Notes: generated from the letters alone by a model not told the origin. A stretch of 64,000 nucleotides of DNA from Candidatus Muiribacterium halophilum (GCA_002869225.1 PKTG01000083.1:74732-138731), one strand, 5' to 3'; numbered from the stretch's first letter, positions 5,427 through 59,845 are shown. A program made the numbers and translations.

Positions 5427-5616
5427 ATTATAGCTCCTAATATTTTGTTATTGTTTACCTTGTAAACAAGTCCCGGACTTATTTTAATTAAGACCAAAGA
5501 TCCGAGCCCTTTGACTCAAGACTACTATTTACTTGTTTGAAATACTTTTCAAAAAATAACTTGTTCATGTCATTTATGAACAATAACTTGATTAATTTAT
5601 TAATCAATAACCGTTT
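5427..5616 (-). repeat. Diverged copy of the intergenic multi-hairpin element (copy 4)
   Basis: A string of perfect hairpins on the plus-strand text: TGTTTAC-CTT-GTAAACA, AAGTC-CCG-GACTT, TTTGAAA-TACT-TTTCAAA, TTGTTCAT-GTCATTT-ATGAACAA and TTGATTAA-TTTA-TTAATCAA. It also shares the strings GGACTTATTTTAAT and AATAACCGTT with the copy at 42281-42478. Confidence 0.55.
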
Positions 5617-15580: not shown

Positions 15581-15616
15581 AAAAAAAAAAGCTGCCGAAA
15601 GGCAGCTTTTTTTTTA
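15581..15616. terminator. Bidirectional rho-independent terminator
   Basis: An A-run, the hairpin AGCTGCC-GAAA-GGCAGCT, then a T-run, placed between convergent genes (15029-15574 on plus, serS on minus). Confidence 0.75.
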
Positions 15617-37400: not shown

Positions 37401-40400
37401 ATTTGTATATATAACATCAACTGGAATGTTGGAAAACATATTGGATGAAAGTTCAACCTGCGGACAATTGTTCAGATCGATAGATCTAACAACAGTTCCT
37501 GTAAAGATGTTGTTCTCGATCTTTCCGGTGAAAGTATTAAGAACCAGATCATTTTCATTCGCCTTAAAAATATTCCCTTCTATCGTTACATCATCAAAAG
37601 TACCAGTTAATGAAATGGAGGTAAGATTTTTACTGAAGATAGAATCACGAACATCTAAAAAAGAGTTTCCGTGTTTGATTATAGCATTACTGGCATAATA
37701 AAACTCACAGTTCTGCGCAGATATGGAAGCACCTTCATCAAGATCAATTCCTGCATAATCACCAGAAGCAGGAGCTCCTCCTGATGGATTCATACATGCT
37801 CCAAATGTATTATCTTTAAGCGATGTAAAGACAGTTCCTTTAGCATATAAAAACGAACCATCTTCCAGTTTTATTCTTGCCCCTGTATCAAACTTTAATA
37901 TCGTATCATCCTGTATTATGAGTTTTTTTCCGGTCTTTACAACAAGATCATCCTCTATTACATATTGCCTATCAGAAGTCCATACTGTATCCTCATCTAT
38001 CTCACCATTATATTCATTTGTTGTAAATACAAATTCTCTAGCAACAAGATGAGGTATCACCCTTGTAGTATGTTCTGTTTTCCAATTAGACATAGAACTT
38101 GTCAGAACATATTCGTCTACCTTTTGATCCTTATTCTCTACTATTACCTTTATTATCTTTGTCCTTACAGGTTCTTTTATGGAATACATTCCGTTATCTG
38201 TTGCTGCAAATATTGTATTATTATCTTTACTCACTTCAATTTTATATATCTGGGTCACATCAGGTATAGTTACGTTCTTTCTCTGCACAAAGTCTTTCTT
38301 ATCGATATCATAGGTGTATAAGGTGTTACCACTTGCAATATAAAGGAATTTATTATCCCAGGATGTCTTCCAATCCGTTATTGAGTTAAAATCTGTCGAT
38401 TTTGTAAATTCCTTCGTAAACACAGTATCCTGATTGAATCTTATCTTCAATGAATCCAATGTAAGTGAAGCAAAATCATTTGTATCAGAATCATCCAATC
38501 TAAAACCTATTGAAAGAACATTTGATGGAGGAACATTATAGGTATCTGTAAAATTGCCAGTCGCCACAATATCCGTCTTAACAGGTGCATCTGATAATGT
38601 CCCGGATGTCTGATCAAGTAGACTCTTACTTATAATACCGTTATAACAAAAAAATTGGATGTTCCCCTGAACATTCTCAATTTGTGCATCAACAGAAAAA
38701 GTCCTTAGATATTTTGGGATTGGAAATACAAAGGTCCTGTAAAATAGAACAGAACAAAGATTGCTGTTATCATCACTTCCTATTATCGGCTTTGTGTTGA
38801 CCTCTATCTTTCCTGAGTCCTGTTCTATCTGGAACCCTTCATTTGCACCTGTTGAGTAAGATGCAAAGCTGTATCCATTAAAATCATCGAATTCATCCTC
38901 GAACTTATCCTGATAGGAATAAATATCAATTTTTTTCTCAGTATCAGAGAAGGCTACAAATCTGTCTTCTTTGTCTATATTACATAGGTTCTTATAAACA
39001 TCCTCTGTTGAATTTGAGTCTATGTTTTTTGAATAAATAAAATCCACATCTCCATTATCTTTCGAAGTTATAAGTGTATTTCCTGAGGCTGATAGAGTAC
39101 TGGCGATCGCATCATAATCCATATCAGATATATTATTTGTAAAGGTATCTAAAAAGTATATCTTTGAATTCGTCTTTGAAAACATGAACAAAGTCTTACC
39201 ATCTTTGGAACAAAGTATATTGTCTATTCCGGAAAAGTAATTAAAAGTCTTAAGATCTGTAAGTTCTGATGAAAGACTATAAAGAAGCGTTCCATCTGAG
39301 AAAAGCACTTCCTGATTATTTACGGCAAAGTTTCTTATCCCATTTTTGGCAAAATATCTATAATCAGTAATATCCCCTCTGTGGAATCTATATAATCCGT
39401 CGGTTGCAATAATATATATATATTTATTTGTCACTTTGAGATCAATAAGATCATCGTTTATATTTATAGGTTTGTTATAACTAGTTGTCGATTTTGTTTT
39501 CAGGCTATAAAAATTTATTGTGTTCTGACCCAAGTAGACTATCTCACCTGAATCTTCCAGAAAGTCCATATCTATTACAGAACCGTTGTTTATAAGATCT
39601 GCTACACCAAGATAACCGCCATCTGTCTTGAAAAATTTATTGGAATCGCCTTCTTTTCCGCCAAAATAATATTCATCATCTATATATGAGTATACTATTG
39701 ATTCCAGTTTCTCATATTCAAGGCTCACCTGATTAGATAAGGCATCTCCATCTACATCATATTTATATACATAATCTCCACTAGTTGTGAATACAAACTC
39801 GTTGTTAAATACATCATAATAAGCTGATGTGAGTTTAGAAGAAGGTAAAGAAAACTCGTATATAGATGATGTAAGGTCGGTGTTTTCAAGTATTGCTACT
39901 TTATCGGAATAACCTAGGACTGTCTTACCTTGTAAGGTATAAAGAAAATAACAATCTGTATAATCTCCTATCTTTTCAAAATCTACATAAAGACCGTTTA
40001 CTCCGGCAGTAGCAAATTTACCATCAATAAAACACATATCCTCTATTCCCTGAAGAGCTTCTCCTGAAAAGGTCCTTATAAGATTCAATTCTCCCAGTGA
40101 ATAGGAATAGACTTCCATATTATCACCATAATTTACATATATTATCTTCGAATCAGGAGTAGTCGCTATGTTTAAAGGGAGATCGGGCAAAGTCACCTGA
40201 GTCTCGATAGTTCCCGAAAAAGGATTTGCTACAATAAGAGCTTTATTGGAATTATTGACAGCAAACATCCTGTTTCCATCTCTCGAAAGAGTTATATTGG
40301 TTAAGACATCCGGGAAATATGCCAATTTTTCAGGGACAAATTCCAATCCATCAGCTGCTGATATTCTTTGACCGTTAGCATTATATATCTCTACTTTTCT

Positions 40401-40511
40401 TTTATAATCAGAATACTGATCCTGTATATCACCTGATATATCCGATATTGCTCCGTAATCCTCAAAAAATCCATCATAATCATCTATATCATCAAAATCT
40501 CTACGGTTGAT
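34449..40511 (-). CDS. Second segment of the giant reading frame: protein of about 2000 aa with propeller-like repeats and right-handed parallel beta-helix (PbH1/NosD-like) repeats
   Basis: The track ORF is 34449-40346 (1965 aa, TTG start). The 55 codons upstream are open and acidic (INRRDFDDIDDYDGFFEDYGAISDISGDIQDQ...). They are in frame with the TAG at 40512-40514. Repeats such as IEGNIFKANENDLVLNTFTGKIENNIFTG indicate a beta-helix. Confidence 0.7.
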   Translation of the reverse strand: MNRRDFDDIDDYDGFFEDYGAISDISGDIQDQYSDYKRKVEIYNANGQRISAADGLEFVPEKLAYFPDVLTNITLSRDGNRMFAVNNSNKALIVANPFSGTIETQVTLPDLPLNIATTPDSKIIYVNYGDNMEVYSYSLGELNLIRTFSGEALQGIEDMCFIDGKFATAGVNGLYVDFEKIGDYTDCYFLYTLQGKTVLGYSDKVAILENTDLTSSIYEFSLPSSKLTSAYYDVFNNEFVFTTSGDYVYKYDVDGDALSNQVSLEYEKLESIVYSYIDDEYYFGGKEGDSNKFFKTDGGYLGVADLINNGSVIDMDFLEDSGEIVYLGQNTINFYSLKTKSTTSYNKPININDDLIDLKVTNKYIYIIATDGLYRFHRGDITDYRYFAKNGIRNFAVNNQEVLFSDGTLLYSLSSELTDLKTFNYFSGIDNILCSKDGKTLFMFSKTNSKIYFLDTFTNNISDMDYDAIASTLSASGNTLITSKDNGDVDFIYSKNIDSNSTEDVYKNLCNIDKEDRFVAFSDTEKKIDIYSYQDKFEDEFDDFNGYSFASYSTGANEGFQIEQDSGKIEVNTKPIIGSDDNSNLCSVLFYRTFVFPIPKYLRTFSVDAQIENVQGNIQFFCYNGIISKSLLDQTSGTLSDAPVKTDIVATGNFTDTYNVPPSNVLSIGFRLDDSDTNDFASLTLDSLKIRFNQDTVFTKEFTKSTDFNSITDWKTSWDNKFLYIASGNTLYTYDIDKKDFVQRKNVTIPDVTQIYKIEVSKDNNTIFAATDNGMYSIKEPVRTKIIKVIVENKDQKVDEYVLTSSMSNWKTEHTTRVIPHLVAREFVFTTNEYNGEIDEDTVWTSDRQYVIEDDLVVKTGKKLIIQDDTILKFDTGARIKLEDGSFLYAKGTVFTSLKDNTFGACMNPSGGAPASGDYAGIDLDEGASISAQNCEFYYASNAIIKHGNSFLDVRDSIFSKNLTSISLTGTFDDVTIEGNIFKANENDLVLNTFTGKIENNIFTGTVVRSIDLNNCPQVELSSNMFSNIPVDVIYTNAGELDVTYNDFASCDNVLEATEADIRFSDNNINDCDYFFDISDYMTSGPKDLNIMNNIFSGCDSVLSLSGSLPNLSINTKLNYFVRCVNEVTNTSSKVADCKYNYWGENTSKSFTNTITEPYVLFGRIDQPRSYEGESVIRHHLRINSSGSANFKDGRLYLFSEFIKPFIEIRKSTGGDAASFSADSMIIDQDTSEVASIFTDTGLQPQSQWEGFRVYGDINLKYSVVDKADCIFAMRSQSMINEENYGPRLQEIVYNRFGEENGYCFGFYASEAGNEFNAVSNMMSFNIFEKESDYIDPNSYIPVPLSDPFDWRYNYWGDNNIVNTPDGAVAAVVNVFPRAVMGSIDSAITVPYYPATNEHRLVCLGDIEVNSQVRFANSGSAMGIVTPQVVMTGDDGIKISSAGSITVQTAHPYAEFNDIRVLDSKFSSYKNWERWGGIDPDTDPENLPIGIYSMQPKMKFSIKNANLVWENIVKNNTVNGVLQFEDCFMMVSDNSVINTDYNGIYFQIKDSIIGFKNSAMFRMSQLNSLSSFEFTDNKIGPYNYTFFVDGIKLENGNTTPSKYFGLNGTSSDSPSMVEFTDNEFYRSGGIYFDFVPQNIEILNNTFEKCYGVDHIFYLKYGSCNLLIEGNEFGDISGFDPDADKACGGFLKIDTLTLNNANINNNTFADSLGAVSPFEISNVVVDDPFIIEGNEFIYSGNNDKLFKVYNTSELSSDGVPDSFIFKNNLFYKPENGSDFYIIDGNNLNELAFYFNHSNSEYAFNLNGSSDLIVITNNNFKGFDGSVNTINTSVICNYIENPPFSVSINPLSLPDPVDISTSADFQVKTYDTSEIYGMDVYQDPNYIQKDKDVQFTLITDPGATQFDFGVFNSFFSGPSLDNSIGAFLVRHYMTPASAQVNFLSSPKQKGYFILTRPAGTDEYNGTFTINGYSNSTTDYNYINADWNDLIKVSIPVFGLINGISEFPVPMPMPDPPEPPLDF

Positions 40512-40739
40512 CTAGCCATCCTCTTTACCAATGCTTCCGTAGTTTATCCTATCCTCATAATCTCTGCTCATTATCTCGTTCATAAGTTCTTCTGCAAGCA
40601 CTTCCATGTTGAAATCTTTTTGAATATTATCTGTAGACTTCATACCAACCATAAAAGCGGTTACTATTGGTGCTACTACGACGGTAAGAAGTGATATTGT
40701 TATAATTATCTCGACAAGAGTAAAACCTCTTTTTTTCAT
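40512..40739 (-). CDS. Prepilin-type N-terminal cleavage/methylation segment heading the giant reading frame (ends at the in-frame TAG)
   Basis: 75 aa beginning MKKRGFTLVEIIITISLLTVVVAPIV, a class III signal with G/FTLVE. It shares its frame with 34449-40511. Confidence 0.7.
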   Translation of the reverse strand: MKKRGFTLVEIIITISLLTVVVAPIVTAFMVGMKSTDNIQKDFNMEVLAEELMNEIMSRDYEDRINYGSIGKEDG

Positions 40740-40891
40740 ATAAGACTCCCCTCAAAACCTAAACAGCCTAATTTAATTGTAAGACTTTTAAAGTATTTAA
40801 TCAATAACTCTTAATATATAGTACTTGAATATAAGTTGATTTGTTACAGTATGAAGTCTCACTTACTCAACGCTCTAACGTCACAACGTTA

Positions 40892-42208
40892 TTATCTGTA
40901 TACACTTATTCCAAAGAGTGAGCCATCAAGAATATCGAAAATTCTCCAACGATTCTCTTCGTTTTTTCTGAATTTAAAAAGGGTAAATCCGTTCACCTTT
41001 TCGGTCTTTCCATCGGCTGTATATGTGAGATCTGATTCCCAATCGACACCGATCTCTATACTCTTTTCAAATTTCATAAAATTTCTTATATCATAGTGAA
41101 TATAGAAAAAATCCTTATCATAGAAAAAATCTATAAGATTATCACTTATCACATTCATATTTCCGCGATATTCTATCTGATCAAAATATGCCAAAACACC
41201 ACTATATTCTTCATCTTTTAAATAATACACAAGACTTTCCATATACCTTTCCAGCTGCTGTCTATCATTTTCATTCAGATATGTCACCTTAACACTATAG
41301 AAAGTCTTACCTGAATCAAATCCATCTGTATCGCGAGCTAATATCTTTATAAGATATGTCTTCTTTGCCTGAGGCTCGAACTGATATCTGAATGGCGATA
41401 CACCTTCAGCCTGAAGATATGTCTTCCCACCATCTACTGAAATCAGTATGCTTCTTATATCTTTAGCAAACGATTTACCGATCTCTCCACTTATTATGAT
41501 CTTTCCTCTGATAAGATCATCCTTATTTATAAAGAGCTCATCTTTTTCATCAACAAATACATTACATATCTTAAGACCTCTAAATTTCACAAAAAATGGA
41601 TCACCCTGTTTAAAAGGTTCATCAACACCAGCCTGAAAATCCTCCTTCACATCCTGGAGTCTTGCCTTAGCCATCATCTTTTCTTTTGAAATACTAGTTG
41701 GTTCAGGTTCTACCGGGCCGTAATCAGGTGTTATTATAGTCTGATAAGCGTTCAACACCCTTAATTTACCATTTGGACCTTTTGCCCAGAACTCATTATC
41801 ATTTGATATTCCCCACATAAAATTTGAATTTGCAGTAATAATAAAACTACCTGCTTCAAATTCAAAAAAGTTATTCCCCTGATAAAATCTTATACTTCTA
41901 TCAAGATTTTTTGCTTCCAATCCAACCATACCATTTATTTCATAAGAATTTTTTGATTTTCTTTTGACCAAAGTATCAGGTTCAAGTCTCAGTACAGAAC
42001 CATCGTAAAGTCTTATCGAACATCTTGATAGAGGAAGTGTTCTTATATAATCTCCTCTATTTATATTCATATTCTCAACGACTTTTTTCCAGTTCTCCCC
42101 TCTTCTCTTTATCTGTGCTTTACCTGAGAAATCTATTACATTATCCGAAAAAGCTAAAAAAGCTGTACAAATAATGAGGGTAATTAAAATTATTTTTTTA
42201 TCAAACAT
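40892..42208 (-). CDS. Secreted FecR-domain-like protein
   Basis: The likely start is MFDKKIILITLIICTAFLAFS, with GTAGGAG upstream. The track's 32-codon N-terminal extension is a translation of the hairpin element. A FecR-like stretch is present (GKAQIKRRGENWKKV...GDYIRTLPLSRCSIRLYDGSVLRLEPDT). Confidence 0.5.
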   Translation of the reverse strand: MFDKKIILITLIICTAFLAFSDNVIDFSGKAQIKRRGENWKKVVENMNINRGDYIRTLPLSRCSIRLYDGSVLRLEPDTLVKRKSKNSYEINGMVGLEAKNLDRSIRFYQGNNFFEFEAGSFIITANSNFMWGISNDNEFWAKGPNGKLRVLNAYQTIITPDYGPVEPEPTSISKEKMMAKARLQDVKEDFQAGVDEPFKQGDPFFVKFRGLKICNVFVDEKDELFINKDDLIRGKIIISGEIGKSFAKDIRSILISVDGGKTYLQAEGVSPFRYQFEPQAKKTYLIKILARDTDGFDSGKTFYSVKVTYLNENDRQQLERYMESLVYYLKDEEYSGVLAYFDQIEYRGNMNVISDNLIDFFYDKDFFYIHYDIRNFMKFEKSIEIGVDWESDLTYTADGKTEKVNGFTLFKFRKNEENRWRIFDILDGSLFGISVYR

Positions 42209-42280
42209 AAATTCTCCTACAAATATTATTTTATAAATGATACCTTTAATCGTTTTTTTGTTCAACAACAAAAGGCATTT

Positions 42281-42478
42281 TAGCAACTCTGTTGCCGTTG
42301 ACAAACTTCGTTTGTATATTCAACTTACGTTGAAATGCTCACCTTTGCTGAGTGTCTCGGACTTTATTTTAATCTAACCTAAACACTTTCCTTAGGAAAG
42401 CATATGAGCTTTAGCTCATCATTTTTTTCGAAGAAAAAATAATTTGGCTTTTGCCAAATAACCGTTATCTGCACTGTT
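42281..42478 (-). repeat. Intergenic multi-hairpin element, copy 1 (possible structured RNA or REP/BIME-like repeat)
   Basis: Eight consecutive stem-loops beginning directly after the upstream stop codon. It is about 90 percent identical by eye to the inverted copy at 50121-50319. On the minus strand the hairpin at 42319-42334 reads TTCAAC-GTAA-GTTGAA, a GNRA loop. Confidence 0.7.
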
Positions 42479-43954
42479 CTAATGTTTCTCAAACACCATC
42501 GAATCACCTGACTTTTTATACTTAAAGATATTTGTTTTATCAGGTAGCTGTTTTAAAATATCTATATTACCAAAAAGATGCATTGGTACAAATAATCCAG
42601 GTCTTAAAGCATCCATTATATCTTTAGCACCTGATAAATCCCGCACCCTATTGTCAGCATTAGAAAATACAATATCAAAAGGTTTTTTTTTCTTTAGATT
42701 TTCAACAGTATCAAAAAAATATTTCACATAAAGTTCAAATTCCTGTTTACTTAGACCTTCCCAATACCAGCTGGCAAGATCACCCCCAAAGTATATTCTT
42801 AATCCTTTCCATTCTAAAATATATGCCATTCCCTCATCGTTACTTTTAATGGTTGACACTTTTAAATCTTTATCTTTAAAGGAATCATTATCCGTTTTTA
42901 AAGATATGACATCTTTTTTATCTATTTTGATGTTTTCAGGAACAAATATTCTAAGCTTTTTATCCTTAAAAAAAGATAGATCCTTTGTAAAATGATCACT
43001 ATGACCATGTGAGAAAAAGAGATTTATATTCTCAGGTGATATTTTATCTATAAGTGAAAAGACATTTTCTTCTATAAAAGATTTGTCAGGTACATCAAAT
43101 AAAATACCCTCCTCACCATGTTTAATTAAAAAACAGTTCTGATAAAAGTAAACAATTTCAAATCTACCCATGTTATCTCCTTTAATCTTCAAAAGATCAT
43201 TTTCAAAAAAAATTATTAAAGATAGAAAAATACATACAAAATATATGTAGTTTTTCTTTACAAACTTTATTTTTATAAGAAATAGATTGATAAAAGCAAA
43301 TACAGAAAGTAAATAAGACTTAAAATATATATCAGTGAAGAATATGGTAATATTGAGTGAATAAATCAAAAACCAAATTGGAAATCTAAGATTAAACCAG
43401 TTGAATACTTTTGCTTCTTTGTCCCCTTTGGTATCGTTTATATCTTTAAAAGCCATCATCAAAAACGCATAAAAAATAAAGTTTAATAGAAATATCTTGT
43501 CTAAACCTTCAGGTCTGTTTAATAATATTGATAAGGCGACTATTAAAACAACAATATTACCTGAAATATTTCTTTTCGCTCTGAATGGAGGAATTGAATA
43601 TATTATTCCACCGGTCATGACAATGATTGATAATATCAATATTTTTTGAGAAAAATAAACAATCGGTATCATTATCCCAAGAAAAAAAAGAAATATTGAA
43701 TAGTTCCTAATATTTTTTCCACCGAGATCATTGATAAGTTTAATCCTTTTAGGCTTATTTATACTATCTTCTTTTTTGTCTGTCAGGATATTTATAGTAT
43801 ATATGAAATTAAAAGGTATTAAAGAAAAAAAGAATGCTAAAGCAAGTGTTTGAAAAACATTGTTATTATCGAAAGAATAAAAGGATAGCAAAAAAACCAA
43901 AAGAAAAATATCAAATCTGTAGGTTTTAGGAAATAATAATATTATTTTTATCAT
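42479..43954 (-). CDS. UbiA-family prenyltransferase fused to an MBL-fold metallo-hydrolase domain
   Basis: 491 aa. The N-terminal multi-TM half has NILTDKKED (NxxxDxxxD) and DINDTKGD (DxxDxxxD). The C-terminal soluble half has SHGHSDH (HxHxDH). Confidence 0.7.
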   Translation of the reverse strand: MIKIILLFPKTYRFDIFLLVFLLSFYSFDNNNVFQTLALAFFFSLIPFNFIYTINILTDKKEDSINKPKRIKLINDLGGKNIRNYSIFLFFLGIMIPIVYFSQKILILSIIVMTGGIIYSIPPFRAKRNISGNIVVLIVALSILLNRPEGLDKIFLLNFIFYAFLMMAFKDINDTKGDKEAKVFNWFNLRFPIWFLIYSLNITIFFTDIYFKSYLLSVFAFINLFLIKIKFVKKNYIYFVCIFLSLIIFFENDLLKIKGDNMGRFEIVYFYQNCFLIKHGEEGILFDVPDKSFIEENVFSLIDKISPENINLFFSHGHSDHFTKDLSFFKDKKLRIFVPENIKIDKKDVISLKTDNDSFKDKDLKVSTIKSNDEGMAYILEWKGLRIYFGGDLASWYWEGLSKQEFELYVKYFFDTVENLKKKKPFDIVFSNADNRVRDLSGAKDIMDALRPGLFVPMHLFGNIDILKQLPDKTNIFKYKKSGDSMVFEKH

Positions 43955-44523
43955 AACATTTCTTTTTTGAACTCTTCTGCTGGAAACATACCGTTTATAG
44001 TGATTTTACCACTTTGATTTATTCTTATCTCAACACAGTTTTTTTGTTCAAATAACTCTTTTTCAGATATTCGTTCAGATAAGAATCTGAAATTCTGATT
44101 CTTTGAACCAACAAAAGGTCTTTTTGCCTCTTTTTCAATTTGAATAAACCTTCCATCTATAAGAAGATCAATATTTTCCAAAAGTTCTGAACACCTCTTG
44201 TCCTTTTTCAGTAATTCATGATATTCATAACCTGTAAACACTATGATATCCTTTTTTTCCTTTACTCCATGGATTATATCATATAGCTGATCAAACTGAT
44301 CGAAAGGTTCACCACCAGATATTGTTATTCCACGAGTTTCCTGTGAAAGTATCAATCCGATAATCTCAGAGACCTTCTTTGAAAAACCTTTATCTTTTTC
44401 CCAGGTATGTTTGGCAAAACATCCATCACATCGATGAGAACAACCCTGAAACCATAAGGCTGTTCTTACACCCGGTCCTTCTACCGATGTTTTTAAAATG
44501 ATATGATTTAATCTTGCATACAT
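43951..44523 (-). CDS. Small radical-SAM activating enzyme (NrdG / glycyl-radical activase-like)
   Basis: 190 aa with VEGPGVRTALWFQGCSHRCDGCF (CxxxCxxC) and ITISGGEP. No glycyl-radical enzyme or NrdD lies nearby. Confidence 0.7.
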   Translation of the reverse strand: MYARLNHIILKTSVEGPGVRTALWFQGCSHRCDGCFAKHTWEKDKGFSKKVSEIIGLILSQETRGITISGGEPFDQFDQLYDIIHGVKEKKDIIVFTGYEYHELLKKDKRCSELLENIDLLIDGRFIQIEKEAKRPFVGSKNQNFRFLSERISEKELFEQKNCVEIRINQSGKITINGMFPAEEFKKEML

Positions 44524-44527
44524 TTTC

Positions 44528-44746
44528 TTAATCCTGAATTATTCTATTTTTATCTACTATCTTATCTTTTAGGTCTACCTTAACGTCTTCCTCATAATAT
44601 TCTTCAGTAAACTCAGATCTAAGGGTCTTTGCATTTAAAATATTTTCAAGAATAGAAATATTTTTAAGACATTTTTTCCCTTTTATATTTTTCGTCTGTG
44701 CTTCTATCGTTCCATCTGGTCTTATCTTGACAATTATCTCTCCCAT
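44528..44746 (-). CDS. DUF2997-like small protein
   Basis: 72 aa. MGEIIVKIRPDGTIEAQTKNIKGKKCLKNISILENIL...EFTEEYYE fits my recollection of the DUF2997 pattern (i.i.pdG.v...v.G.kG..C). Confidence 0.5.
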   Translation of the reverse strand: MGEIIVKIRPDGTIEAQTKNIKGKKCLKNISILENILNAKTLRSEFTEEYYEEDVKVDLKDKIVDKNRIIQD

Positions 44747-44757
44747 AATAGTTCCCC

Positions 44758-45342
44758 CTAAAAATCAATTATTATTCCTTTTCTTTCAGGAGTCATTATT
44801 GTGATCTCCTGTTTGATCTCTTCTGATTTATGAGCAAAATCTATCTGACTCTCAATAGAACCAATATGATGTGGCATGATCTCAAACTTATCAACAAGAT
44901 CATATACATCATCAATAAATATTCCTTCCTGTCGATCATCAAGTATGTTTTGAGCATTTTTTAATGATAATCCAGGCACTTTAAGAAGTTCATTTAGATC
45001 ACAATAGTTTATTTTTATTTTTTGTTCATCATCTATCGATTTTATTTTTTCTTTAATCTTATCACTATCACCAAAAAGATTTTTCACAGGTTGAAATTCT
45101 CTTTCGTCTACTTTTCTTATATATATTTTATCTTTATTCTTTAACGTACCATTTAACATATCTTTTATTAATTTATCATTATAAGGTCCAAATTCTTTCA
45201 TATCCACCAGTAGGATATATTTTTGATCCTCTTTATTTTCCTTAAAAATATTTTCAATATCTATAAGAAAGGAAAATATATTATTTTTAGACCTTTCCGA
45301 CATCAAAGTTATCTTAATCTCATGATCCTCGTTTATTAACAA
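44758..45342 (-). CDS. Hypothetical protein with a ComEA-like helix-hairpin-helix motif
   Basis: 194 aa. DLNELLKVPGLSLKNAQNILDDRQ resembles the ComEA/HhH DNA-binding motif. Confidence 0.45.
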   Translation of the reverse strand: MLINEDHEIKITLMSERSKNNIFSFLIDIENIFKENKEDQKYILLVDMKEFGPYNDKLIKDMLNGTLKNKDKIYIRKVDEREFQPVKNLFGDSDKIKEKIKSIDDEQKIKINYCDLNELLKVPGLSLKNAQNILDDRQEGIFIDDVYDLVDKFEIMPHHIGSIESQIDFAHKSEEIKQEITIMTPERKGIIIDF

Positions 45343-45738
45343 TTAATTAACCGCTATCTTAAAATCTTTAATATCTTTATAATCTAAAAAAACAGGTTTA
45401 GACATAAAGTTTTTATAATGCATTCCTTTAGTGGTAAGACAAAAACCATTTTGCATGTTCTTTTTTATAGTATCATCATAGAAAGCAAGAACCTCTTCTT
45501 CGCCTTTAATATCAGGGAATATGTTTTTTACTTTTTTGATAAATTCAGAAGAAATGTGACCAAAAGATCTGATTCTTTCAGAAGATGTAACATTTTTTTC
45601 AAGTGCTCTAAAAATATCTTTACCTTCACCGAGCAATTTAACTGGTATTTCTTTTTTTTCTAAAACCACTTTTTTTCCACAGTATTTACAAAATTTTGCG
45701 TTTTCATTTATTTTTCTCCTACAGTGATCGCATATCAT
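45343..45738 (-). CDS. Zinc-ribbon protein with a PH/GRAM-like C-terminal domain
   Basis: MICDHCRRKINENAKFCKYCGKK is a CxxC...CxxC ribbon. GGAGG lies 11 nt upstream of the ATG at 45736-45738. Confidence 0.5.
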   Translation of the reverse strand: MICDHCRRKINENAKFCKYCGKKVVLEKKEIPVKLLGEGKDIFRALEKNVTSSERIRSFGHISSEFIKKVKNIFPDIKGEEEVLAFYDDTIKKNMQNGFCLTTKGMHYKNFMSKPVFLDYKDIKDFKIAVN

Positions 45739-45744
45739 CAAAAA

Positions 45745-46473
45745 CTAATCCTCCGTCTTTAATGTGATCACAATACTTCTGTCCTGTTGCCTGGTTTCAC
45801 TTACTACAGTGTATTCAGAATCCTTCAAGTTATCCATAAAATTCTGATAGGTTCTCTTCTGTATTCTACTTCTATAACTTTCATCTAATACACCTATCAA
45901 GGATAACATCTCAGAAGCATCCTTGAACGATTCAAACCTAACAAAAAAAGGCGAATCATTATTTTCCTGAATAAATCTGATACTATTACCAGTTGCATTG
46001 CAGACCAAATCACCATTATTTTCTTCTTCACAACTCATTCCATATTCCCGTATAACCTTTTTTAATAGTTCTTTATCTTTAAAATTTGTTGGAAACTCTT
46101 TTATTTCCTCTATTTCCAATTTTTTTGTATCAATATTTTCTTTCAGATTAGTTCCAGATGATGAATCGAACTCATTTATAAACTGTTTTATAAAGACGTC
46201 ACCTAAATATTTCGGAAAACAAAAAGTCCAGACACCTTCTATTTTATCAATAAAAAAATAATCGTCTTTATCTTTTAGATGAACTTTAAGGCTTCCTGCA
46301 AAATCAATGACATCATAACCGATTTTTTTTAAAGCTACTCCAAGTGCTTCTTTCTCACTTATACCTGAACTTACCCTTATCTCGTTCTTTTCTGCTAATT
46401 CCTGTAGTTTCTGTTCACCGATTACAGCCCTCACTGCAAGAGCTATTGGAATCATCCATATACATACAGACAT
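45745..46473 (-). CDS. Hypothetical protein with two DUF1257 (Ycf35)-like repeats
   Basis: 242 aa. The segments EALGVALKKIGYDV...FFIDKIEGVW and ELLKKVIREYGMSCEE...IRFIQENNDSPFFVRF resemble the DUF1257 pattern. The call is tentative. Confidence 0.4.
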   Translation of the reverse strand: MSVCIWMIPIALAVRAVIGEQKLQELAEKNEIRVSSGISEKEALGVALKKIGYDVIDFAGSLKVHLKDKDDYFFIDKIEGVWTFCFPKYLGDVFIKQFINEFDSSSGTNLKENIDTKKLEIEEIKEFPTNFKDKELLKKVIREYGMSCEEENNGDLVCNATGNSIRFIQENNDSPFFVRFESFKDASEMLSLIGVLDESYRSRIQKRTYQNFMDNLKDSEYTVVSETRQQDRSIVITLKTED

Positions 46474-46508
46474 ATTTTTCTCCTTCGCTAATTGAACTCA
46501 GTCGTGTT

Positions 46509-46705
46509 TAGCAACTATGTTGCTGATAACAACTTTAAAGTTGTGTATTCAACTTTCGTTGAAGTGCTTTGCTTTGCAAAGTGTAAAATCTTTCAAAAAC
46601 TCTTTCTGAACAGAAAGCAAACGAACTTTAGTTCGTCATTCTTTTTTCGCTAGAAAAAACATATTGTTCAATGAACAATCATCAGATTTGTTCTTAAAAA
46701 GAACT
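46509..46705 (-). repeat. Intergenic multi-hairpin element, copy 2 (diverged, with compensatory stem changes)
   Basis: Same hairpin order as copies 1 and 3 but different stem sequences that still pair, for example ACGAAC/GTTCGT against ATGAGC/GCTCAT. On the minus strand the hairpin at 46548-46563 reads TTCAAC-GAAA-GTTGAA. Confidence 0.7.
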
Positions 46706-46709
46706 AATC

Positions 46710-48434
46710 TTATATATCCAATGTTCTTCCACCACGATTCTGATATATATCCTCTTTTGTCTCAAACTCTTCTATATTATCACTATAATCTTTTCTATCT
46801 TCCTTAGATGTGGCCGATACAGCTCTTAAATTAGCCCATGACCTTATACTTAGAATATTTTCCTTCATTGTCTCTGATAATGGTATTGTATCCTTAACGG
46901 CTTTTAAAAAATCATCCGGCCTTATATTTCTTTCCTCCGAAAAACCTTCAAACAAGGCACTTATGACTATTTGTTCTAATTCCGCACCCGTGAATCCTTC
47001 CGTTATAGAAGCTAGTTTTTCGACAAAATTCTTTGATATTTTAAAATCTCCTAAAATATCTTTGTTTTTAAGTCGTTTAACTAGATGAACAAGAAGAATC
47101 GCTTCTCTTTCCCTTTGTGTAGGAATATCTACGAAGAAGATCTCATCGAATCTTCCTTTTCTTAAAAATTCAGAAGGTAATGCATTAATATTATTAGCTG
47201 TGGCAACAACAAATACGGGTTTCTTTTTCTCCTGCATCCATGTAAGAAAGGTTCCGAATATTCTTGCTGATGTGCCTGAATCTCCTCTTCCACCTGAACC
47301 AGAAAAACCTTTTTCTATTTCATCTATCCAAAGAATTGAAGGAGCAACAGCTTCAGCTGTACTAATAGCTTTTCTCATATTTTCTTCAGAACTACCAACA
47401 ATTCCTTGAAAGATCCTACCCATATCCAACCTTAGAAGTGGCAGTTGCCACATAGAAGATATAGATTTTGCAACAAGACTCTTTCCACAACCAGGGACAC
47501 CAGTAATGAGTACTCCTTTAGGTGCAGGAATAGAATATTTCTTTGCTTTATCCTGCCATGATTTGTTTCTTTTCGTTAGCCATCTTTTGAGATTTTCCAA
47601 TCCCCCTACATCGTCCATGTTCAGCTCAGTATTAATAAACTCCAATATCCCTGTTTTTCTTATTATCTGTTGTTTTTCCTCAAATATTACTTTGACATCC
47701 TTTATATTAAGACAACCATCATGTGCCATAGCCCGGGCGAAAGCATTTTCGGCTTCCTGAAGAGTTAGTCCCTGTGCTGCTTTAACAAGTCTCTCTTTAA
47801 CATAATCATTTATCTCAAATTTTATCTTACCTGTATCTTTATTCTGATCTATTATATCATTTAAGACTTTCATGATATCTTCGTAAGCAGGAAGGTCAAA
47901 TTCAAGTATAGTCATATCTTTTTGAAGTTCTATCGGAAGACAAACAACAGGTGATGTGAATACAATATTTTTAGGGCTATTACCATTTTTAATTACCGGT
48001 GATAGATCCCTTAATCTTCTAATCACATTAGGATCAGGTTGAGAATTATTATACCCAAAAAATACATGGAAATCCTTTAGCATAAAAACAGAAGGATTCT
48101 CGTATTTTTCTATAAAACTCAAAGCTTTCATTGGATCTTTAGTATTACTAACCAGTTCGTTTTTTTCGCCTTTTTTTATAAGACCTTTTGTAGAAGTCCA
48201 TGTGTAAAGGTCTCTTTCAGTCTTTATGATCTCTTTCGTAGTTGAGATCTTTTTAAGAATATCCTCAAGTCGATTTTCCTCCCATGTAGGTATGTAAATA
48301 TAAGAAAATCTTGCTTTAAAGAGATCTGATAGATGTTTTATAAATGCATTATTCAAAATAAAACTCCTTCTAGTCGTTTTATGTAAACGGATTTGTTCAG
48401 TTCTTGTAAGTAAATCTTTGTTTTTGTTAAGCAT
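46710..48434 (-). CDS. AAA+ ATPase, Ycf46-like (classical AAA clade)
   Basis: 574 aa with Walker A (GVPGCGKS), Walker B (ILWIDEIE) and a second region of homology (ATANNINALPSEFLRKGRFD). Confidence 0.8.
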   Translation of the reverse strand: MLNKNKDLLTRTEQIRLHKTTRRSFILNNAFIKHLSDLFKARFSYIYIPTWEENRLEDILKKISTTKEIIKTERDLYTWTSTKGLIKKGEKNELVSNTKDPMKALSFIEKYENPSVFMLKDFHVFFGYNNSQPDPNVIRRLRDLSPVIKNGNSPKNIVFTSPVVCLPIELQKDMTILEFDLPAYEDIMKVLNDIIDQNKDTGKIKFEINDYVKERLVKAAQGLTLQEAENAFARAMAHDGCLNIKDVKVIFEEKQQIIRKTGILEFINTELNMDDVGGLENLKRWLTKRNKSWQDKAKKYSIPAPKGVLITGVPGCGKSLVAKSISSMWQLPLLRLDMGRIFQGIVGSSEENMRKAISTAEAVAPSILWIDEIEKGFSGSGGRGDSGTSARIFGTFLTWMQEKKKPVFVVATANNINALPSEFLRKGRFDEIFFVDIPTQREREAILLVHLVKRLKNKDILGDFKISKNFVEKLASITEGFTGAELEQIVISALFEGFSEERNIRPDDFLKAVKDTIPLSETMKENILSIRSWANLRAVSATSKEDRKDYSDNIEEFETKEDIYQNRGGRTLDI

Positions 48435-48510
48435 CCCTTTTGTTAGTCAGTATATTGTTTACAAGAGGCAATCCCGCTCACTAGAACTTTAGTTCGATCA
48501 CAAATCAAAT
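48435..48510 (-). repeat. Short hairpin pair related to the multi-hairpin elements
   Basis: The plus-strand text has GAAC-TTTA-GTTC and CAAATCAAA-TTTA-TTTGATTTG. On the minus strand the loops read TAAA, matching hairpins H1 and H3 of the larger elements. It starts directly after a stop codon. Confidence 0.45.
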
Positions 48511-49998
48511 TTATTTGATTTGAATTCTTCCATCTTTATATGGGTTTACTTTTTTCTTAGCTTTGATGTACTTTGCAACAGCATCTTTTAACTGCAAACC
48601 ACTGATTTCTGTGAAGACCTCTTCATAATCATCAAATTTATAACCATCTCCCCCACCAAGTATGTAAGTATTTAAAGCTACAACATAGTATTCATCTTTT
48701 TCTATTTTTCTTACATCATCAAGAGTTAATCTAAAGCTATTGTTATCTGGATAATAAACAACTTTCATTCCGGATATCTGCAAAAAAGCACCACTTAAAG
48801 CAGGGTCTTTTAAAGCACTGAGAGAGTTTTTGAAAGCCTTATAGAGTTCATCACCTTTCATCTTTACTACAACGACCCCATTTTTAAAAGGAAGGACTTT
48901 TTCTATCTGAGCCATAGTTATAGGACCTTTCATAAGTGAACTTCTTATTCCTCCACCGTTCATAAGACCGATTTGGGCTTCTGAAAGTTCTTTTATTGAG
49001 TCGGATATAAGATTACCCATCTCATTCTCATTTCCCCTAACAGATTTTTTATCTACCATATAATTAGCAGTCGCTTCACCAATTACCATATCCGATAGTC
49101 TTATAACATCCTCTTTTGCTTTATCAGCAAGTTTAGCAATCTTTTTATCTTCCATCCATATATTTGATGGCTCAAGCATATCACTATCATAATATTTAAG
49201 ACGATAATCTCCATCTTTCTTCTCATAAAAAGCCCTTAAAAAACCTAAATATTTACCACCCCAACCTGCTTGAGTGACAATAGTATGATTTACAACAGGA
49301 GGATATTTTACAAGAGTATGAGAATGTCCACCTATTATTATATCAAGATCAGAAAACTGCTCAGCTATTTTCATGTCATTATCAAGTCCCTGATGGGATA
49401 TCATAACAAATATATCAGCTTTATCATGATTTTTTTTGAGTATGTCATTTACTACAACAGCGGGTTCTCTTACTTCGATTCCAAGCTTTTTAATATCAGG
49501 TGAAAACCTTTCTATCATTGTGGTTGTTATTCCAAAATAAAGGATTCTCAAATTTCCTGTTTTTACTATCTTAAATTGTTTATACAACGGTTTACCCTTA
49601 TAAAAAACATTTGCACACAGAGCTTTATCTGAAAGTCTCTTCAAAGTATTTCTCATACCGGAAAAACCATAATCAAATTCATGGTTTCCAAGTGTAAACA
49701 TATCAAGTGGAAGATTCTCATAGATAGTGGCAACTGATTCTCCAGTATCGTAGTTCGCATATAAATATCCTGAAATAAAGTCCCCTACATCTATAAACAA
49801 TGTGTTAGGAAGTGCCTTTTTGATTATTCTGACTTCATTGGCGATCCTTGCTATTCCACCCTTAAGATTTCCGTTCACATCAGCCTCAGGAAGTAGATGT
49901 CCATGGAAATCGTTTATATGCAATATCCTAACGGGTTCATAAGAAAACGTAAATATAATAGTTATCAAGATAAATACAGTAAAAAGATGCTTTTTCAT
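48511..49998 (-). CDS. Bifunctional metallophosphatase / 5'-nucleotidase (UshA family), secreted
   Basis: It has the motifs HINDFHGH and GNHEFDYG plus a C-terminal 5'-nucleotidase domain. The likely start is MKKHLFTVFILI, with GGAGG 6 nt upstream. Confidence 0.85.
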   Translation of the reverse strand: MKKHLFTVFILITIIFTFSYEPVRILHINDFHGHLLPEADVNGNLKGGIARIANEVRIIKKALPNTLFIDVGDFISGYLYANYDTGESVATIYENLPLDMFTLGNHEFDYGFSGMRNTLKRLSDKALCANVFYKGKPLYKQFKIVKTGNLRILYFGITTTMIERFSPDIKKLGIEVREPAVVVNDILKKNHDKADIFVMISHQGLDNDMKIAEQFSDLDIIIGGHSHTLVKYPPVVNHTIVTQAGWGGKYLGFLRAFYEKKDGDYRLKYYDSDMLEPSNIWMEDKKIAKLADKAKEDVIRLSDMVIGEATANYMVDKKSVRGNENEMGNLISDSIKELSEAQIGLMNGGGIRSSLMKGPITMAQIEKVLPFKNGVVVVKMKGDELYKAFKNSLSALKDPALSGAFLQISGMKVVYYPDNNSFRLTLDDVRKIEKDEYYVVALNTYILGGGDGYKFDDYEEVFTEISGLQLKDAVAKYIKAKKKVNPYKDGRIQIK

Positions 49999-50120
49999 AA
50001 AGATCCTCCGCAACAATTTTTTTCTTCAATTATAATTCAGTTATACACTTTTAGCAAATAATGAAAACAGTAAACGATAGAACTTTTTTCGTAAAGCATA
50101 AAGCGTGAAGCGAAACGGAT

Positions 50121-50319
50121 AGAACTGTGTCGATAAGGTTATTTGGCTAAAGCTAAAATATTTTTTCTGTGAAAAAAATGATGAGCTAAAGCTCATATGC
50201 TTTCCTACGGAAAGTGTTTAGGTTAGATTAAAAAAAAGTCCTCGACACTCAGAAAAGCTGAGCATTTCAACGCAAGTTGAATATACAAACGGAGTTTGTC
50301 AACGGCAACAGAGTTGCTA
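50121..50319 (+). repeat. Intergenic multi-hairpin element, copy 3 (inverted relative to copies 1 and 2)
   Basis: It is the reverse complement of copy 1 with only scattered differences. The hairpin at 50266-50281 reads TTCAAC-GCAA-GTTGAA on the plus strand. Confidence 0.7.
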
Positions 50320-50447
50320 ATCTGATTTAAAAATATTTCTGCTTCAAAATATTAAAATAATATGCTACAATTTAGGTATTATATTAAACAGTCCCTGTTT
50401 TGCTGATTATACAGTTTTACGGTTTACTGTTTTTTTTCGGAGGATAA

Positions 50448-50831
50448 GTGAAAGAACTTCAAAAGGAAGCAACAGAAATAATTTTCAATAAACTTCTTCA
50501 GGTATCACAGAGAAAAAGTCTTATTACATATTATGAGCTTAATAAGTACTTACCTAAAATGGGAAGTAAAAACTTTCTAAATCCATTTCAGCCATTATTT
50601 AACGTCCTTAACGATCTTAATGATTGGCTTAGTGATGAAGAAAAACCATTGATCACTTCTCTTGTGATCAACAGAAAGACTGGACTTCCAGGAAAAGGTT
50701 TCTTTTTTTATGCAAGTAAATTAGGTAGATACGATCAGGACCTTGATGACCTTTCACTTAGGAAAGAGTTTTGGGAACAGGAAACAAAAAAAGTTTATGA
50801 ATTTAAATGGATATTGGAGGAAAGACAATGA
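50448..50831 (+). CDS. Hypothetical protein
   Basis: 127 aa, GTG start with GGAGG upstream. No family was recognised. Confidence 0.5.
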   Translation: MKELQKEATEIIFNKLLQVSQRKSLITYYELNKYLPKMGSKNFLNPFQPLFNVLNDLNDWLSDEEKPLITSLVINRKTGLPGKGFFFYASKLGRYDQDLDDLSLRKEFWEQETKKVYEFKWILEERQ

Positions 50832-51319
50832 AAAAAACTTTAATACTATTATTGATATTTTTTACTTTAAACATATTTGCTGCTGATAATATTTTTATGT
50901 GTTTCTCTGGACTTAATACTTTCTTAAAAGAACAGTATAAGATAGAGACTCCTGATAATCAATATAATATCAATCAACTGGTCTCATTTGGTTATGAAAG
51001 GATCGGTTTAAAAGTAGATGTATCTAATTCTGATATTAAAGTATATGATAATTATGCGAAAGAATACTCCTATTCATTCAAAAACAAGACAATAATTGAT
51101 GAATTTATCGAATATCTTAAGGATAAATGGCTTCCTGAAAACTCAGTTAATCCTGTTTCATTTGACATAAAAGGATGCAATATTGAGAAGGTAGACTCTA
51201 ATTCATGCGGTATTTTTGGTAATGATTTTTATGTGACAATGAATATGGATTATATAGTTGAAGACGAGACAATAAATATAAATGAGACTAGAAAAGAATT
51301 TGTAAAATATCAGGACTAA
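50828..51319 (+). CDS. Hypothetical secreted protein
   Basis: The likely start is MKKTLILLLIFFTLNIFA, with GGAGG upstream and an ATGA overlap with the preceding gene. Confidence 0.5.
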   Translation: MKKTLILLLIFFTLNIFAADNIFMCFSGLNTFLKEQYKIETPDNQYNINQLVSFGYERIGLKVDVSNSDIKVYDNYAKEYSYSFKNKTIIDEFIEYLKDKWLPENSVNPVSFDIKGCNIEKVDSNSCGIFGNDFYVTMNMDYIVEDETININETRKEFVKYQD

Positions 51320-51320
51320 C

Positions 51321-52841
51321 TTGAACAAAAAAAAACAGCTATGTTTAATATCTCTATTAATAATCTATTTACTTTTTCTTATTAGTTGTAACAATAAACA
51401 TAGTTTTAAAGAGATCGTAAAACTGAAAGCTGTTTTTTTCTTAAAACTAAATAAACTACAGACTAAAGAGCTTAATGATATTTTTTCGGATGATTCCAGT
51501 CTAAATATCTTAAATAAAGAAATTATCCCGAAGCATGGTAAGTATATATGTCTTCCTGAAAATTCCGGATTATTCTAGGAGATTCGAGGAAATCTATTCG
51601 ATCTTAAAAATAGGATATTGACTTTCTTTGTAGTCTCAATTCAGGCGCTTGGGGAAAAAGGTTTTTTAAAAAAAAGACTCCTATTTGTAACTAAAGACAT
51701 AGAAACTATTAAATATAACTATGTTATTACTTCCTGGAATTTTGATTTTAAAATAAAAAGAAATAAAGATAAGACAATAAATATAAAATCAAAGGACCTG
51801 ACAGCCACTTTCAAACCCAAACAGGACTCAAAATACTTAAAGTTTATTGTAAGTCCCGAGATTAGTTCTGATATCTATATCAAATACGGCAATAAAAGAT
51901 CACGACAGGTTAAAATTAAAGTAGCTTCATTTGGAAATATTTATTCATTTAAAACAGATGATATATTAAAAAAAGATAATACATACGAACTTCAAATATC
52001 TGATTTTTCAACTGATCTTTCAATCGAAAAAGACTTTGATCTAGTCTTTAAACCTATAAGTACAAGAGATATGGTGATTGATATCTATGACACCATACCT
52101 ACAAAATGTAGAATTAAATGTCATGAGGATGATATTAAAGTAGTATTTCCATATGAGAAAAGCATTATTGAAAAAAAAGAAAATAGTATATATGTAAATG
52201 GGAAAAGTAATTTCAACAATCTTTTTCTTCTAACAGATAATGATTATTCCGAATTCAAGGCTTCCAACATAGATTTAAAAATATCAAAAAAGATTACAGA
52301 TCAGAATATATCTCAGAAACAGTTATCTATATTCACCACTATATTATCCGATCTTACAGATATAAATTTAAAAAATAAAGATGTGTTTGTTTTCAGTGGA
52401 AGAAGCAGCGGAATAATAGAGTATCCTCTAATACTTTTAAATCCCAAGACACTTTATAGAAGACCTGATAACACGCTTATGACTTTCAATCAGACCTTAA
52501 AAAAAAATCTACTTCATGAAATCACCCATCTATATACGGGTAAACTTCCTCATTTTAATCCATATTTTTATGAAGGTATGACTACTTTTTTAGAGTTTTA
52601 TATTTTTTCAGGATTATACAATGATGATCTTTTAAGATTCATTGACTCTGATATTACTCTTATAGATTTTAAAAAAATATCACACGGTCTGATAATCGAG
52701 AATCTTTTGAAAAGAGACGATGTTTATTATACAGGAGCTTCTTTCTTTTATTCACTTTTTAAAAAGGATAATGATATTATAAAAAAGATCTTAAATAAAA
52801 AAGCGCCTGCCGATATAGCAGACGCTTTAGATCTGAATTAA
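51321..52841 (+). CDS. Lipoprotein with an HExxH zinc-metalloprotease-like domain, interrupted by an in-frame TAG at 51576-51578
   Basis: The 85-codon ORF MNKKKQLCLISLLIIYLLFLISC (lipobox) and the 407-codon ORF (LLHEITHLYTG...YFYEG) share one frame. They read ...ENSGLF*EIRGNLFDLKNRILTFF... across the junction. The large ORF has no signal peptide of its own. Confidence 0.65.
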
Positions 52842-59677: not shown

Positions 59678-59845
59678 CTTCCCCTCCAAAACTTTTTTAA
59701 TATTTTAACATTTATCAATATTTTTAACAATATGTTTATAAGTAGAATTATATTAAATAAAACGTTCAATTTATTTTTTTATTACATTCTCAATAAATTT
59801 ACAGTATAATTAAATTAGTATTGAGTATTGTAGTAGGAGGTCCCT

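Follow-up and report, generated by a model that had tools for sequence, protein, structure and literature searches.

A lineage-specific intergenic element of eight mini-hairpins as a candidate structured repeat in Candidatus Muiribacterium halophilum

Several families of short structured intergenic repeats have been described in bacteria. The bcr repeats of the Bacillus cereus group (Okstad 2004; Klevan 2007; Kristoffersen 2011), summarised in PMC3184786, are non-coding, intergenic and about 150-300 bp long, vary in distribution between close relatives and keep an RNA-level structure by compensatory changes, and one of them, bcr5, lies at both ends of a gene cluster (PMC3184786). REP and BIME sequences form intergenic or intercistronic clusters of palindromes that are co-transcribed with operons, and BIMEs serve as mRNA 3' stabilisers and partial terminators. 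Pneumococcal BOX and SPRITE repeats are structured, transcribed and intergenic and alter the expression of their neighbours, SPRITE carrying a motif that resembles a Rho-independent terminator. The Correia and REP2/CREN repeats of Neisseria are small repeats landing just upstream of genes, which can contribute parts of promoters and, once co-transcribed, form structured RNA. Here we describe an element of about 200 bp that occurs three times in a stretch of 64,000 nucleotides (nt) from Candidatus Muiribacterium halophilum (GCA_002869225.1, PKTG01000083.1:74732-138731; hereafter the window). It is like bcr in the traits just given, like REP/BIME in its intergenic and intercistronic palindromes, like SPRITE in a terminator-like module (its hairpins H1-H3), and like the Neisseria repeats in lying just upstream of genes.

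We lean towards reading this element as a lineage-specific, non-coding, duplicative structured intergenic repeat of eight mini-hairpins, about 200 bp long, which was inserted at three sites within 8 kb and acts on co-transcribed RNA. Among its three copies, c1 to c3, the pairing of the hairpins is constrained both in an old comparison, that with c2, and in a young one, that of c1 with c3. Copies c1 and c3 are young, being 93% alike and missing at the orthologous sites of a sister species, and c2 parts two genes that lie close together (15-28 nt) in other Muiribacteriota.

Architecture, pairing and strand preference of the copies

A first-pass annotation of the window had proposed three full copies, each of eight consecutive stem-loops in the same order. 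Aligned on the strand of the downstream gene (hereafter the sense strand), the copies prove to lie where it had placed them, with offsets of a few bases only, and the order of the hairpins holds in all three. Copy c1 (42280-42481, minus strand) has the stop codon of an MBL-fold gene on one side and a conserved promoter-like block of a gene for a 438-amino-acid (438-aa) protein on the other; the TAG of that stop codon (42479-42481) forms the first three bases of the block of homology between c1 and c3. Copy c2 (46508-46710, minus strand), the most diverged and longest, fills the 236-nt gap between an AAA ATPase gene (stop codon TAA, 46710-46712) and the gene of a 242-aa protein, whose ATG at 46473 lies 35 nt past the end of c2. 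Copy c3 (50120-50320, plus strand) is inverted with respect to the other two and lies between divergent promoter-like blocks of a 5'-nucleotidase gene (minus strand) and a 127-aa gene (plus strand). Every copy has a gene start of its own orientation 35-130 nt downstream.

The stems measure 5-7 bp and the loops 3-6 nt, and between H4 and H5 lie 20-33 nt that are A/U-rich and unpaired. On the minus strand, the hairpins of c1 are H1 (42442-42459), H2 (42423-42439), H3 (42404-42419), H4 (42385-42401), H5 (42338-42352), H6 (42319-42334), H7 (42301-42315) and H8 (42282-42296). Those of c2, likewise on the minus strand, are H1 (46663-46679), H2 (46642-46659), H3 (46621-46636), H4 (46602-46617), H5 (46567-46581), H6 (46548-46563), H7 (46529-46544) and H8 (46510-46524), preceded by an extra 5' hairpin, H0 (46684-46710), which c1 and c3 lack. 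In c3, on the plus strand, they are H1 (50142-50157), H2 (50161-50177), H3 (50181-50196), H4 (50199-50215), H5 (50248-50262), H6 (50266-50281), H7 (50285-50299) and H8 (50304-50318). As had been described, c1 and c3 are near-identical, forming a 184-nt inverted repeat that is 93% complementary, with a longest identical stretch of 38 nt, and c2 has diverged in sequence (about 68% identical to c1 or c3) with its pairing kept. Some details of the stems and loops need correction. The stem CTTTCTG/CAGAAAG had been given for H4 of c2, but its 7-bp version leaves a 2-nt loop, and therefore H4 is better drawn as the 6-bp stem CTTTCT/AGAAAG with a GTTC loop. The H5 stem CTCAG/CTGAG is right for c3, but in c1 the arm reads GTGAG and gives one G-G mismatch; the TAAA loop ascribed to H1 is likewise that of c3, those of c1 and c2 being AAAA and ATT.

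The central claim of that annotation, namely that pairing is maintained by compensatory stem changes, stands. In the three-sequence alignment with its 51 pairs, 94.8% of the 153 pair cells are standard, and ten pairs, in H1, H3, H4, H5 and H7, have changed on both sides with the pair kept and with no intermediate states seen. When the partners were slid by 1-3 columns as a control, 0-1 double changes and 37-46% pairing were obtained, and none of 500 shuffles reached the observed covariation values. All ten compensatory changes come from one comparison, that of c2 with c1/c3, which amounts to two independent lineages, and for this reason a test of the R-scape type is not possible. The comparison of c1 with c3 gives a signal that is independent of c2, as the stems are depleted of substitutions between these young copies: only 3 of their 17 differences fall in the 102 stem columns (hypergeometric P = 0.004), and one of the three turns a G-C into a G-U pair on the sense strand.

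The three loci also stand out from their surroundings. No other hairpin hot spot exists in the 64 kb: per 250 nt they hold 8-10 perfect hairpins of 6 bp or more (143 such hairpins in the whole window). Measured against shuffles, the folding z-scores of the copies are about -3.8 to -4.6. With a covariance model made from the three copies, these score 247, 242 and 186 bits, and the next-best sense-strand score in the window, with filters off, lies below 15 bits.

One hairpin is conserved beyond its pairing. H6, TTCAAC-GNAA-GTTGAA (42319-42334 and 46548-46563 on the minus strand, 50266-50281 on the plus strand), has six of six pairs that never vary, and its loops are GTAA, GAAA and GCAA, in agreement with the kept stem and GNRA loop noted at first. 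Together with its flanks it forms a 27-nt block that is invariant save for the loop N (T, A or C), so that H6 is constrained in sequence, beyond structure. Two further structural candidates were rejected: the GAAA-tetraloop receptor (CCUAAG/UAUGG) of H4 is kept in neither c2 nor c3, and a long-range closing helix (CUGAUGA/UUAUCAG) is seen in c2 only and is no feature of the family.

The sense strand folds better than the antisense strand in all three copies (-54.1 vs -49.6 kcal/mol for c1, -54.6 vs -53.1 for c2 and -54.4 vs -45.3 for c3), because G-U pairs, which become A-C mismatches on the other strand, and the GNRA loop favour it. H4 and H8 have G-U closing pairs, which are paired on the sense strand only; H8 is closed by G-U in c1 and c3 and by A-U in c2. 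The GNRA loop had been said to occur only on the strand co-oriented with the flanking genes. The loop is indeed confined to the sense strand, but the argument from co-orientation is weaker than it looks, because c3 lies between divergent genes and is co-oriented with one of them either way. Only the orientations of c1 and c2 are informative, and the chance probability of both being sense is 0.25. The strand bias points to sense-strand RNA or single-stranded DNA, and its margin is modest.

The copies as probable insertions and their genomic setting

Outside the three loci the element was not recovered. With the covariance model, no fourth copy was found in about 84 kb of this genome (the window and 10 kb beyond each end), nor was the element found in 0.84 Mb of related loci, those of related Muiribacteriota included; a 21-bit match in the contig L106 was rejected after inspection, as it is full of non-canonical pairs. 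Exact-pattern scans with H6 and its flank through viral, GTDB-genome and metagenome collections returned chance 21-nt matches only, a protein-anchored search with relatives of the AAA ATPase (viral and GTDB collections, eight Muiribacteriota contigs) yielded no homologous element, and no match was found in phage and plasmid records. Within the window, no solitary H3, H6 or H8 was detected at up to 2-3 mismatches. The element had been described as foreign to the known Rfam families, and this was confirmed by an Rfam 15 scan of the window, which gave a tRNA alone; with permissive thresholds the best hit had E = 0.04 and 26.6 bits, compared with a gathering score of 49.9. The window's best model match other than the copies (14.9 bits, E = 0.012) lies in an intergenic region at 5439-5607 on the minus strand, between 4986-5426 and 5617-6504, which holds three unrelated AT-rich hairpins of 7-8 bp and is probably unrelated to the element.

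Copies c1 and c3 are missing at the corresponding sites of a close relative. A sister species with about 81% DNA identity is represented by two short contigs, L119 and L120. L119 carries the orthologue of the 438-aa gene, at 87% amino-acid identity. Upstream of it stand the conserved block TTTTGTTGTTGAACAAAAAAACGAT.AAAGGTATCATTTATAAAATAA and, farther out, the end of the MBL-fold gene, and about 30 unrelated nt take the place of c1. L120 carries the 127-aa gene, its left flank being homologous up to window position 50114 and its right flank from 50336, and 112 unrelated nt replace the window stretch 50115-50335 that encloses c3. No remnants of the element were found in these replacement sequences (P > 0.1), and they show no likeness to the other sequences compared. 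The flanks are 80-82% identical between the two species, as compared with 93% for c1 and c3. As c1 and c3 are more alike than the orthologous flanks, the duplication post-dates the species split, or else the copies are being homogenised. It was also observed that the open reading frame of the MBL-fold protein in the sister species (L119 1-10) appears to stop 7 codons earlier, with GAT TAG there vs GAT TCG here (window 42479-42502, minus strand), and the insertion region would therefore have changed the C-terminus of the protein.

The junction that holds c2 can be compared more widely. The closest AAA-ATPase contigs of other Muiribacteriota keep the same operon (5'-nucleotidase, AAA protein, a protein of 24x aa, HHH protein, DUF2997, radical SAM enzyme), and the gap between the AAA gene and the 24x-aa gene is 15-28 nt in L112/L113 and L116 vs 236 nt here. 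In Muirbacterium halophilum-like contigs there is a gap of about 300 nt at this junction, which is filled with different, non-homologous repeats and hairpins. These contigs carry a short repeat distinct from the element, GTCATCCCGGTA..., which occurs in two intergenic gaps of the same operon (L108, 6520-6555 and 8518-8560; L117, about 5090-5150); it is sometimes completed to a CCCGG/CCGGG hairpin with a T run, and it is present at the junction between the AAA and 24x-aa genes, the position of c2 in the window. This junction seems to attract structured insertions in separate lineages. A search for homologues of the 242-aa protein, which bears on whether c2 is ancestral, found none.

Copies c1 and c3 enclose a gene cluster of 7.6 kb (42482-50119, minus strand), which encodes the 5'-nucleotidase, the ycf46-like AAA ATPase, then, past c2, the 242-aa protein, a Zn-ribbon/HHH protein, a DUF2997 protein, an NrdG-like radical SAM enzyme and the MBL-fold protein. 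The cluster has the same orientation and neighbours in relatives without c1 and c3, and an origin of the two copies by intramolecular replicative transposition (inversion-insertion) was rejected on this ground. The operon at 43951-50016 (minus strand) is shared across Muiribacteriota (L108, L112, L116, L117) and has no assigned function; its Zn-ribbon/HHH protein is ComEA-like, and its AAA protein is 59-66% identical to proteins of many Firmicutes. Nothing convincing came from a PADLOC scan of the context for defence systems.

Further genes of the wider neighbourhood were noted. Directly downstream of the 438-aa gene that follows c1 lies a giant pilin-like gene (31425-40739, minus strand; 3219 aa in other assemblies), which has the prepilin methylation motif GFTLVE at its N-terminus and a weak NosD match. 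On the other side of the cluster, two tandem paralogous genes of about 1000 aa (52854-55838 and 56669-59689, minus strand) are packed with CarboxypepD_reg repeats and share 74-79% DNA identity over more than 1 kb; the space between the two holds a CarboxypepD_reg gene of 247 aa. Pyr4-like transmembrane terpene cyclase genes are duplicated in tandem (27994-29251, plus strand; direct repeats 607 nt apart, 71-77% identical) where the window is richest in AT (24% GC).

Two doubts about the source of the window were settled. An origin from a jumbo or crAss-like phage with N4-type hairpin promoters, which PHROG matches and AT-richness had suggested, was rejected because the window carries rpoA, serS, pheST, folD, PFOR, ychF and murG and matches no phage record; homologues of the 438-aa protein all come from Candidatus Muiribacteriota, and the same species has been assembled at least three other times at 99.8% identity (ENA ERZ794999, JGI 3300007102, Logan SRR5894287/289). 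Stop-codon recoding (code 4, 25 or 15), as suggested by merged public gene calls, was also rejected, because TGA recoding fuses serS with ychF and the stops found in frame are G>T / C>A differences private to the window's assembly; with the standard code, 88% is coding. Such stops lie inside murG (9472-9474), the Zn-ribbon/HHH gene (45343-45345) and the giant pilin-like gene (40512-40514 and 34449-34451). Other assemblies have sense codons in murG (GAA vs TAA in the window) and in the Zn-ribbon/HHH gene, and for the pilin-like gene the difference at 40514 and the merged public gene call point the same way. Among the mismatches to ENA NODE_15, 22 of 32 have T or A in the window vs G or C there. 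Such a G>T / C>A signature, at about 1.5 per kb, would fit a mutator lineage as the window's source, or else errors due to oxidative damage or assembly. Two sites of this type, 42475 and 46620, fall in unpaired parts of c1 and c2.

Proposed action and competing readings

The covariation had been taken as the mark either of a functional RNA or of a structure-selected repeat in the manner of REP/BIME or BOX. With three known copies only, all within 8 kb, and with c1 and c3 absent in the sister species, the idea of a family with a broad RNA function finds no support, and the structure-selected repeat is favoured over a conserved functional RNA class. If so, the constraint would act on RNA of the gene-sense strand, produced by read-through from upstream genes, which is unavoidable for c2 only. 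Copy c2 alone directly precedes a ribosome-binding site, with a Shine-Dalgarno sequence only in the 35 nt before the ATG. As no more than these 35 nt separate c2 from the next ATG, the downstream genes would have to be transcribed through c2 or from inside it.

How such an RNA may act can be sketched from the terminator-like features. The module H1-H2-H3 (42404-42459 on the minus strand in c1, 46621-46679 in c2, 50142-50196 in c3) resembles a weak bidirectional terminator: in the sense direction H1 is followed by a run of six or seven T, which is the 5' arm of H2, and in the antisense direction each of the three copies has H3 followed by the complement of H2's A run. Eight terminator-like sites were flagged in 40000-52000, seven of them within the three copies. 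The H1 and H3 stems contain 2-3 G-C pairs and, at -3.7 to -7.1 kcal/mol, are weak. On the other hand, a clear bidirectional intrinsic terminator, A9-GCTGCC-GAAA-GGCAGC-T9, lies between convergent genes at 15582-15615, which shows that canonical terminators, much stronger than the element's hairpins, are in use in this organism. H1 and antisense H3, each with its U run, might thus punctuate operons as a leaky bidirectional terminator, an endonuclease would be likely to cut the single-stranded A/U-rich linker of H4 and H5, and the hairpin blocks on either side of it may be barriers to 3' and 5' exonucleases that protect both cleavage products, a mechanism of the kind known for BIMEs. An outward -35/TG motif in H7-H8 might restore downstream expression.

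The motif in question is a sigma-70-like one at the 3' end of the element, which reads in c1 TTGTCA, 16 nt (containing H8), TGc-TAAAAT (42277-42304, minus strand), with 10 of 12 matches and the TG. The same motif is TTGTCA-16-TGcTAATCT in c3 and TTGTTA-16-TGcTAAACA in c2, the second half of the -10 box lying outside the repeat and being poor in c2 and c3, and it is a lead only. A bolder extension would make the element a self-contained, mobile operon punctuation cassette acting as RNA, in which H1-H3 would serve as the leaky bidirectional terminator, alongside a site for processing, hairpins for protection and a promoter directed outwards, with the invariant C-GNAA-G hairpin docking a host factor or RNA polymerase. 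Its insertion would rewire transcript ends and starts around a conserved gene cluster, and c1 and c3 could flip the 7.6-kb cluster and so redirect read-through; we give this extension a small chance.

Several points weigh against the reading as an inserted, RNA-level repeat. Three known copies make a very small sample for a repeat family. Taken singly, the hairpins have little stability (-1 to -7 kcal/mol), folding is nearly as good on the antisense as on the sense strand, and template-switching correction of palindrome arms could mimic compensatory change. In this AT-rich region promoter-like matches are no commoner than by chance (57 found, 61 expected). Nor are the empty sites clean, 30-112 nt of unrelated sequence being present there, and formally a loss in the sister species instead of an insertion could account for the pattern. 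No long-range inverted repeat common to the three copies was found, the ends of c1 and c3 sharing at most a 4-8 nt TTAG(C)AAC resemblance that c2 lacks; the flanks (..ACAT| |AATGCC.. for c1, ..CGGA| |TCTGAT.. for c3) contain no target-site duplication; and no transposase or RAYT (Y1_Tnp) was seen among the window's open reading frames scanned. The element therefore fails the defining tests of a MITE, as shared terminal inverted repeats and target duplication are both missing, although MITE-like presence/absence polymorphism at orthologous sites, short of clean empty sites, is seen. It equally fails those of REP/BIME, as it has no reiterated GC-rich unit, its eight hairpins all being different with AT-rich stems of 5-7 bp.

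Among the alternatives, the one that survives best is a recruited cis-regulatory leader or upstream module, which would place three operons under common control as REP2/CREN does in Neisseria, or a processive-antitermination RNA of the put, EAR or boxB type, its GNRA hairpin docking a protein or RNA polymerase. The gene starts of the same orientation past every copy, the constraint on the sequence of H6 and not on its structure alone, the position of c1 ahead of a pilin-like operon of more than 9 kb, and the -35/TG motif at the 3' end all speak for it. However, native promoter-like blocks lie downstream of both outer copies. That of the 438-aa gene, TTGAAC-17-TATCAT (42237-42265, minus strand), is directly downstream of c1 and is conserved in the sister species without c1, and that of the 127-aa gene, TTCAAA-17-TGcTACAAT (50343-50371, plus strand), is 22 nt downstream of c3 and is conserved in L120; to the left of c3, the block of the 5'-nucleotidase gene, TTGCTA-17-TATAAT (50029-50057), is likewise conserved. 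These blocks would place c1 and c3 probably upstream of core promoters and not in 5' untranslated regions. Moreover, the orientation of c3 says nothing on the matter, the element is not conserved upstream of the orthologous genes (absent in L119 and L120), as a leader or riboswitch would be, and Rfam returned no match, known antitermination RNAs included. We regard a regulatory module as unlikely.

A slimmer prospect still is an element that works at the level of DNA, whether as an inverted c1/c3 pair through which recombination would invert the 7.6-kb cluster, or mobilise it as a composite unit, or as palindromes that would be protein-binding or cruciform sites. An inversion would redirect read-through from the pilin-like operon to the 127-aa operon. 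In keeping with this idea, c1 and c3 sit, inverted, exactly at both borders of one gene cluster, much as bcr5 repeats do (PMC3184786), they share the 38-nt identical stretch, and two independent assemblies, L046 (window 42412-50200) and L059 (starting at 42343), break inside c1 and/or c3. However, k-mer assemblers yield contig breaks at any repeat, and the ENA assembly spans both copies in the orientation of the window. The breaks of L046 and L059 fall within or beside stretches identical between c1 and c3, as expected from repeat collapse, which would also hide inversion heterogeneity of the 7.6-kb segment; the assemblies, one spanning both copies and two breaking at them, thus speak neither for nor against an inversion. 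Cruciform extrusion would need longer stems than these of 6-7 bp, the concerted change of both half-sites runs counter to sequence-specific protein binding, strand-asymmetric G-U pairs and a GNRA loop are unexpected for sites in duplex DNA, and c2 is left without a role.

Sibling genes of trans-acting small RNAs, about 200 nt each with their own promoter and terminator, would fit the discrete length and defined ends of the element, its conserved structure and A-rich loops, and the short U-rich stretch that follows H8 in c1 and c3. We hold them to be very improbable in view of the lack of a conserved promoter at a 5' end that, in c1 and c2, begins at the upstream gene's stop codon, the lack of a U tract after H8 of c2 and of a conserved single-stranded seed region, and the absence of the element from the sister species. 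Least probable of all is a functionless structure, in which neutral local duplicates would have their palindromes kept perfect by the mutation process (template switching in quasi-palindromes, gene conversion), for, although the stems are almost perfect on both strands, the copies few and local, and no phenotype or expression is known, the ten double changes over five hairpins with no intermediates, the sequence constraint on the loops and on H6 beyond any correction of arms, and the tolerance of G-U pairs on one strand only all tell against it.

Should the structured, inserted repeat be confirmed, it would be a structurally unusual addition to the small structured intergenic repeats, with eight distinct mini-hairpins, an invariant GNRA hairpin among them, from a phylum that has no cultured members and no described repeats. 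With two copies that post-date the split from the sister species and one inside a formerly tight operon junction, the locus would amount to a natural experiment in which the tolerance of such insertions, and the way they reshape the boundaries of operons, could be followed. The case opens up no question of long standing, and three copies in one species limit its reach.

Comparison with known structured repeats

The differences from the described families are as clear as the likenesses. Bcr1 has flanking 5-bp direct repeats, a two-arm cruciform-like fold and tens to hundreds of copies, and it is known to be transcribed (PMC3184786), whereas the element has no target duplication, eight serial mini-hairpins and three known copies, and is known from sequence alone. 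REP is a single imperfect palindrome of about 35 nt, GC-rich, that is repeated in alternating orientation, numbers hundreds of copies and moves by means of RAYT transposases; in the element, by contrast, the hairpins are perfect, AT-rich and all eight different, no unit is reiterated, and no RAYT was seen among the scanned frames of the window. The pneumococcal repeats were compared by description and not by sequence. BOX is modular, with boxA, a variable number of boxB and boxC, exceeds 100 copies and has an inferred insertion-sequence partner, whereas no reiterated module exists in the element, and SPRITE, of about 105 nt, is biased to convergent gene ends. Correia repeats have 26-bp terminal inverted repeats, a TA duplication and one long hairpin cleaved by RNase III, none of which is found in the element, and REP2 includes a ribosome-binding site as well as an ATG, both of which the element lacks. 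Taken as a whole, the comparison suggests that the element most resembles the structured repeats reviewed in PMC3184786, namely bcr1, BOX, SPRITE and REP/BIME.

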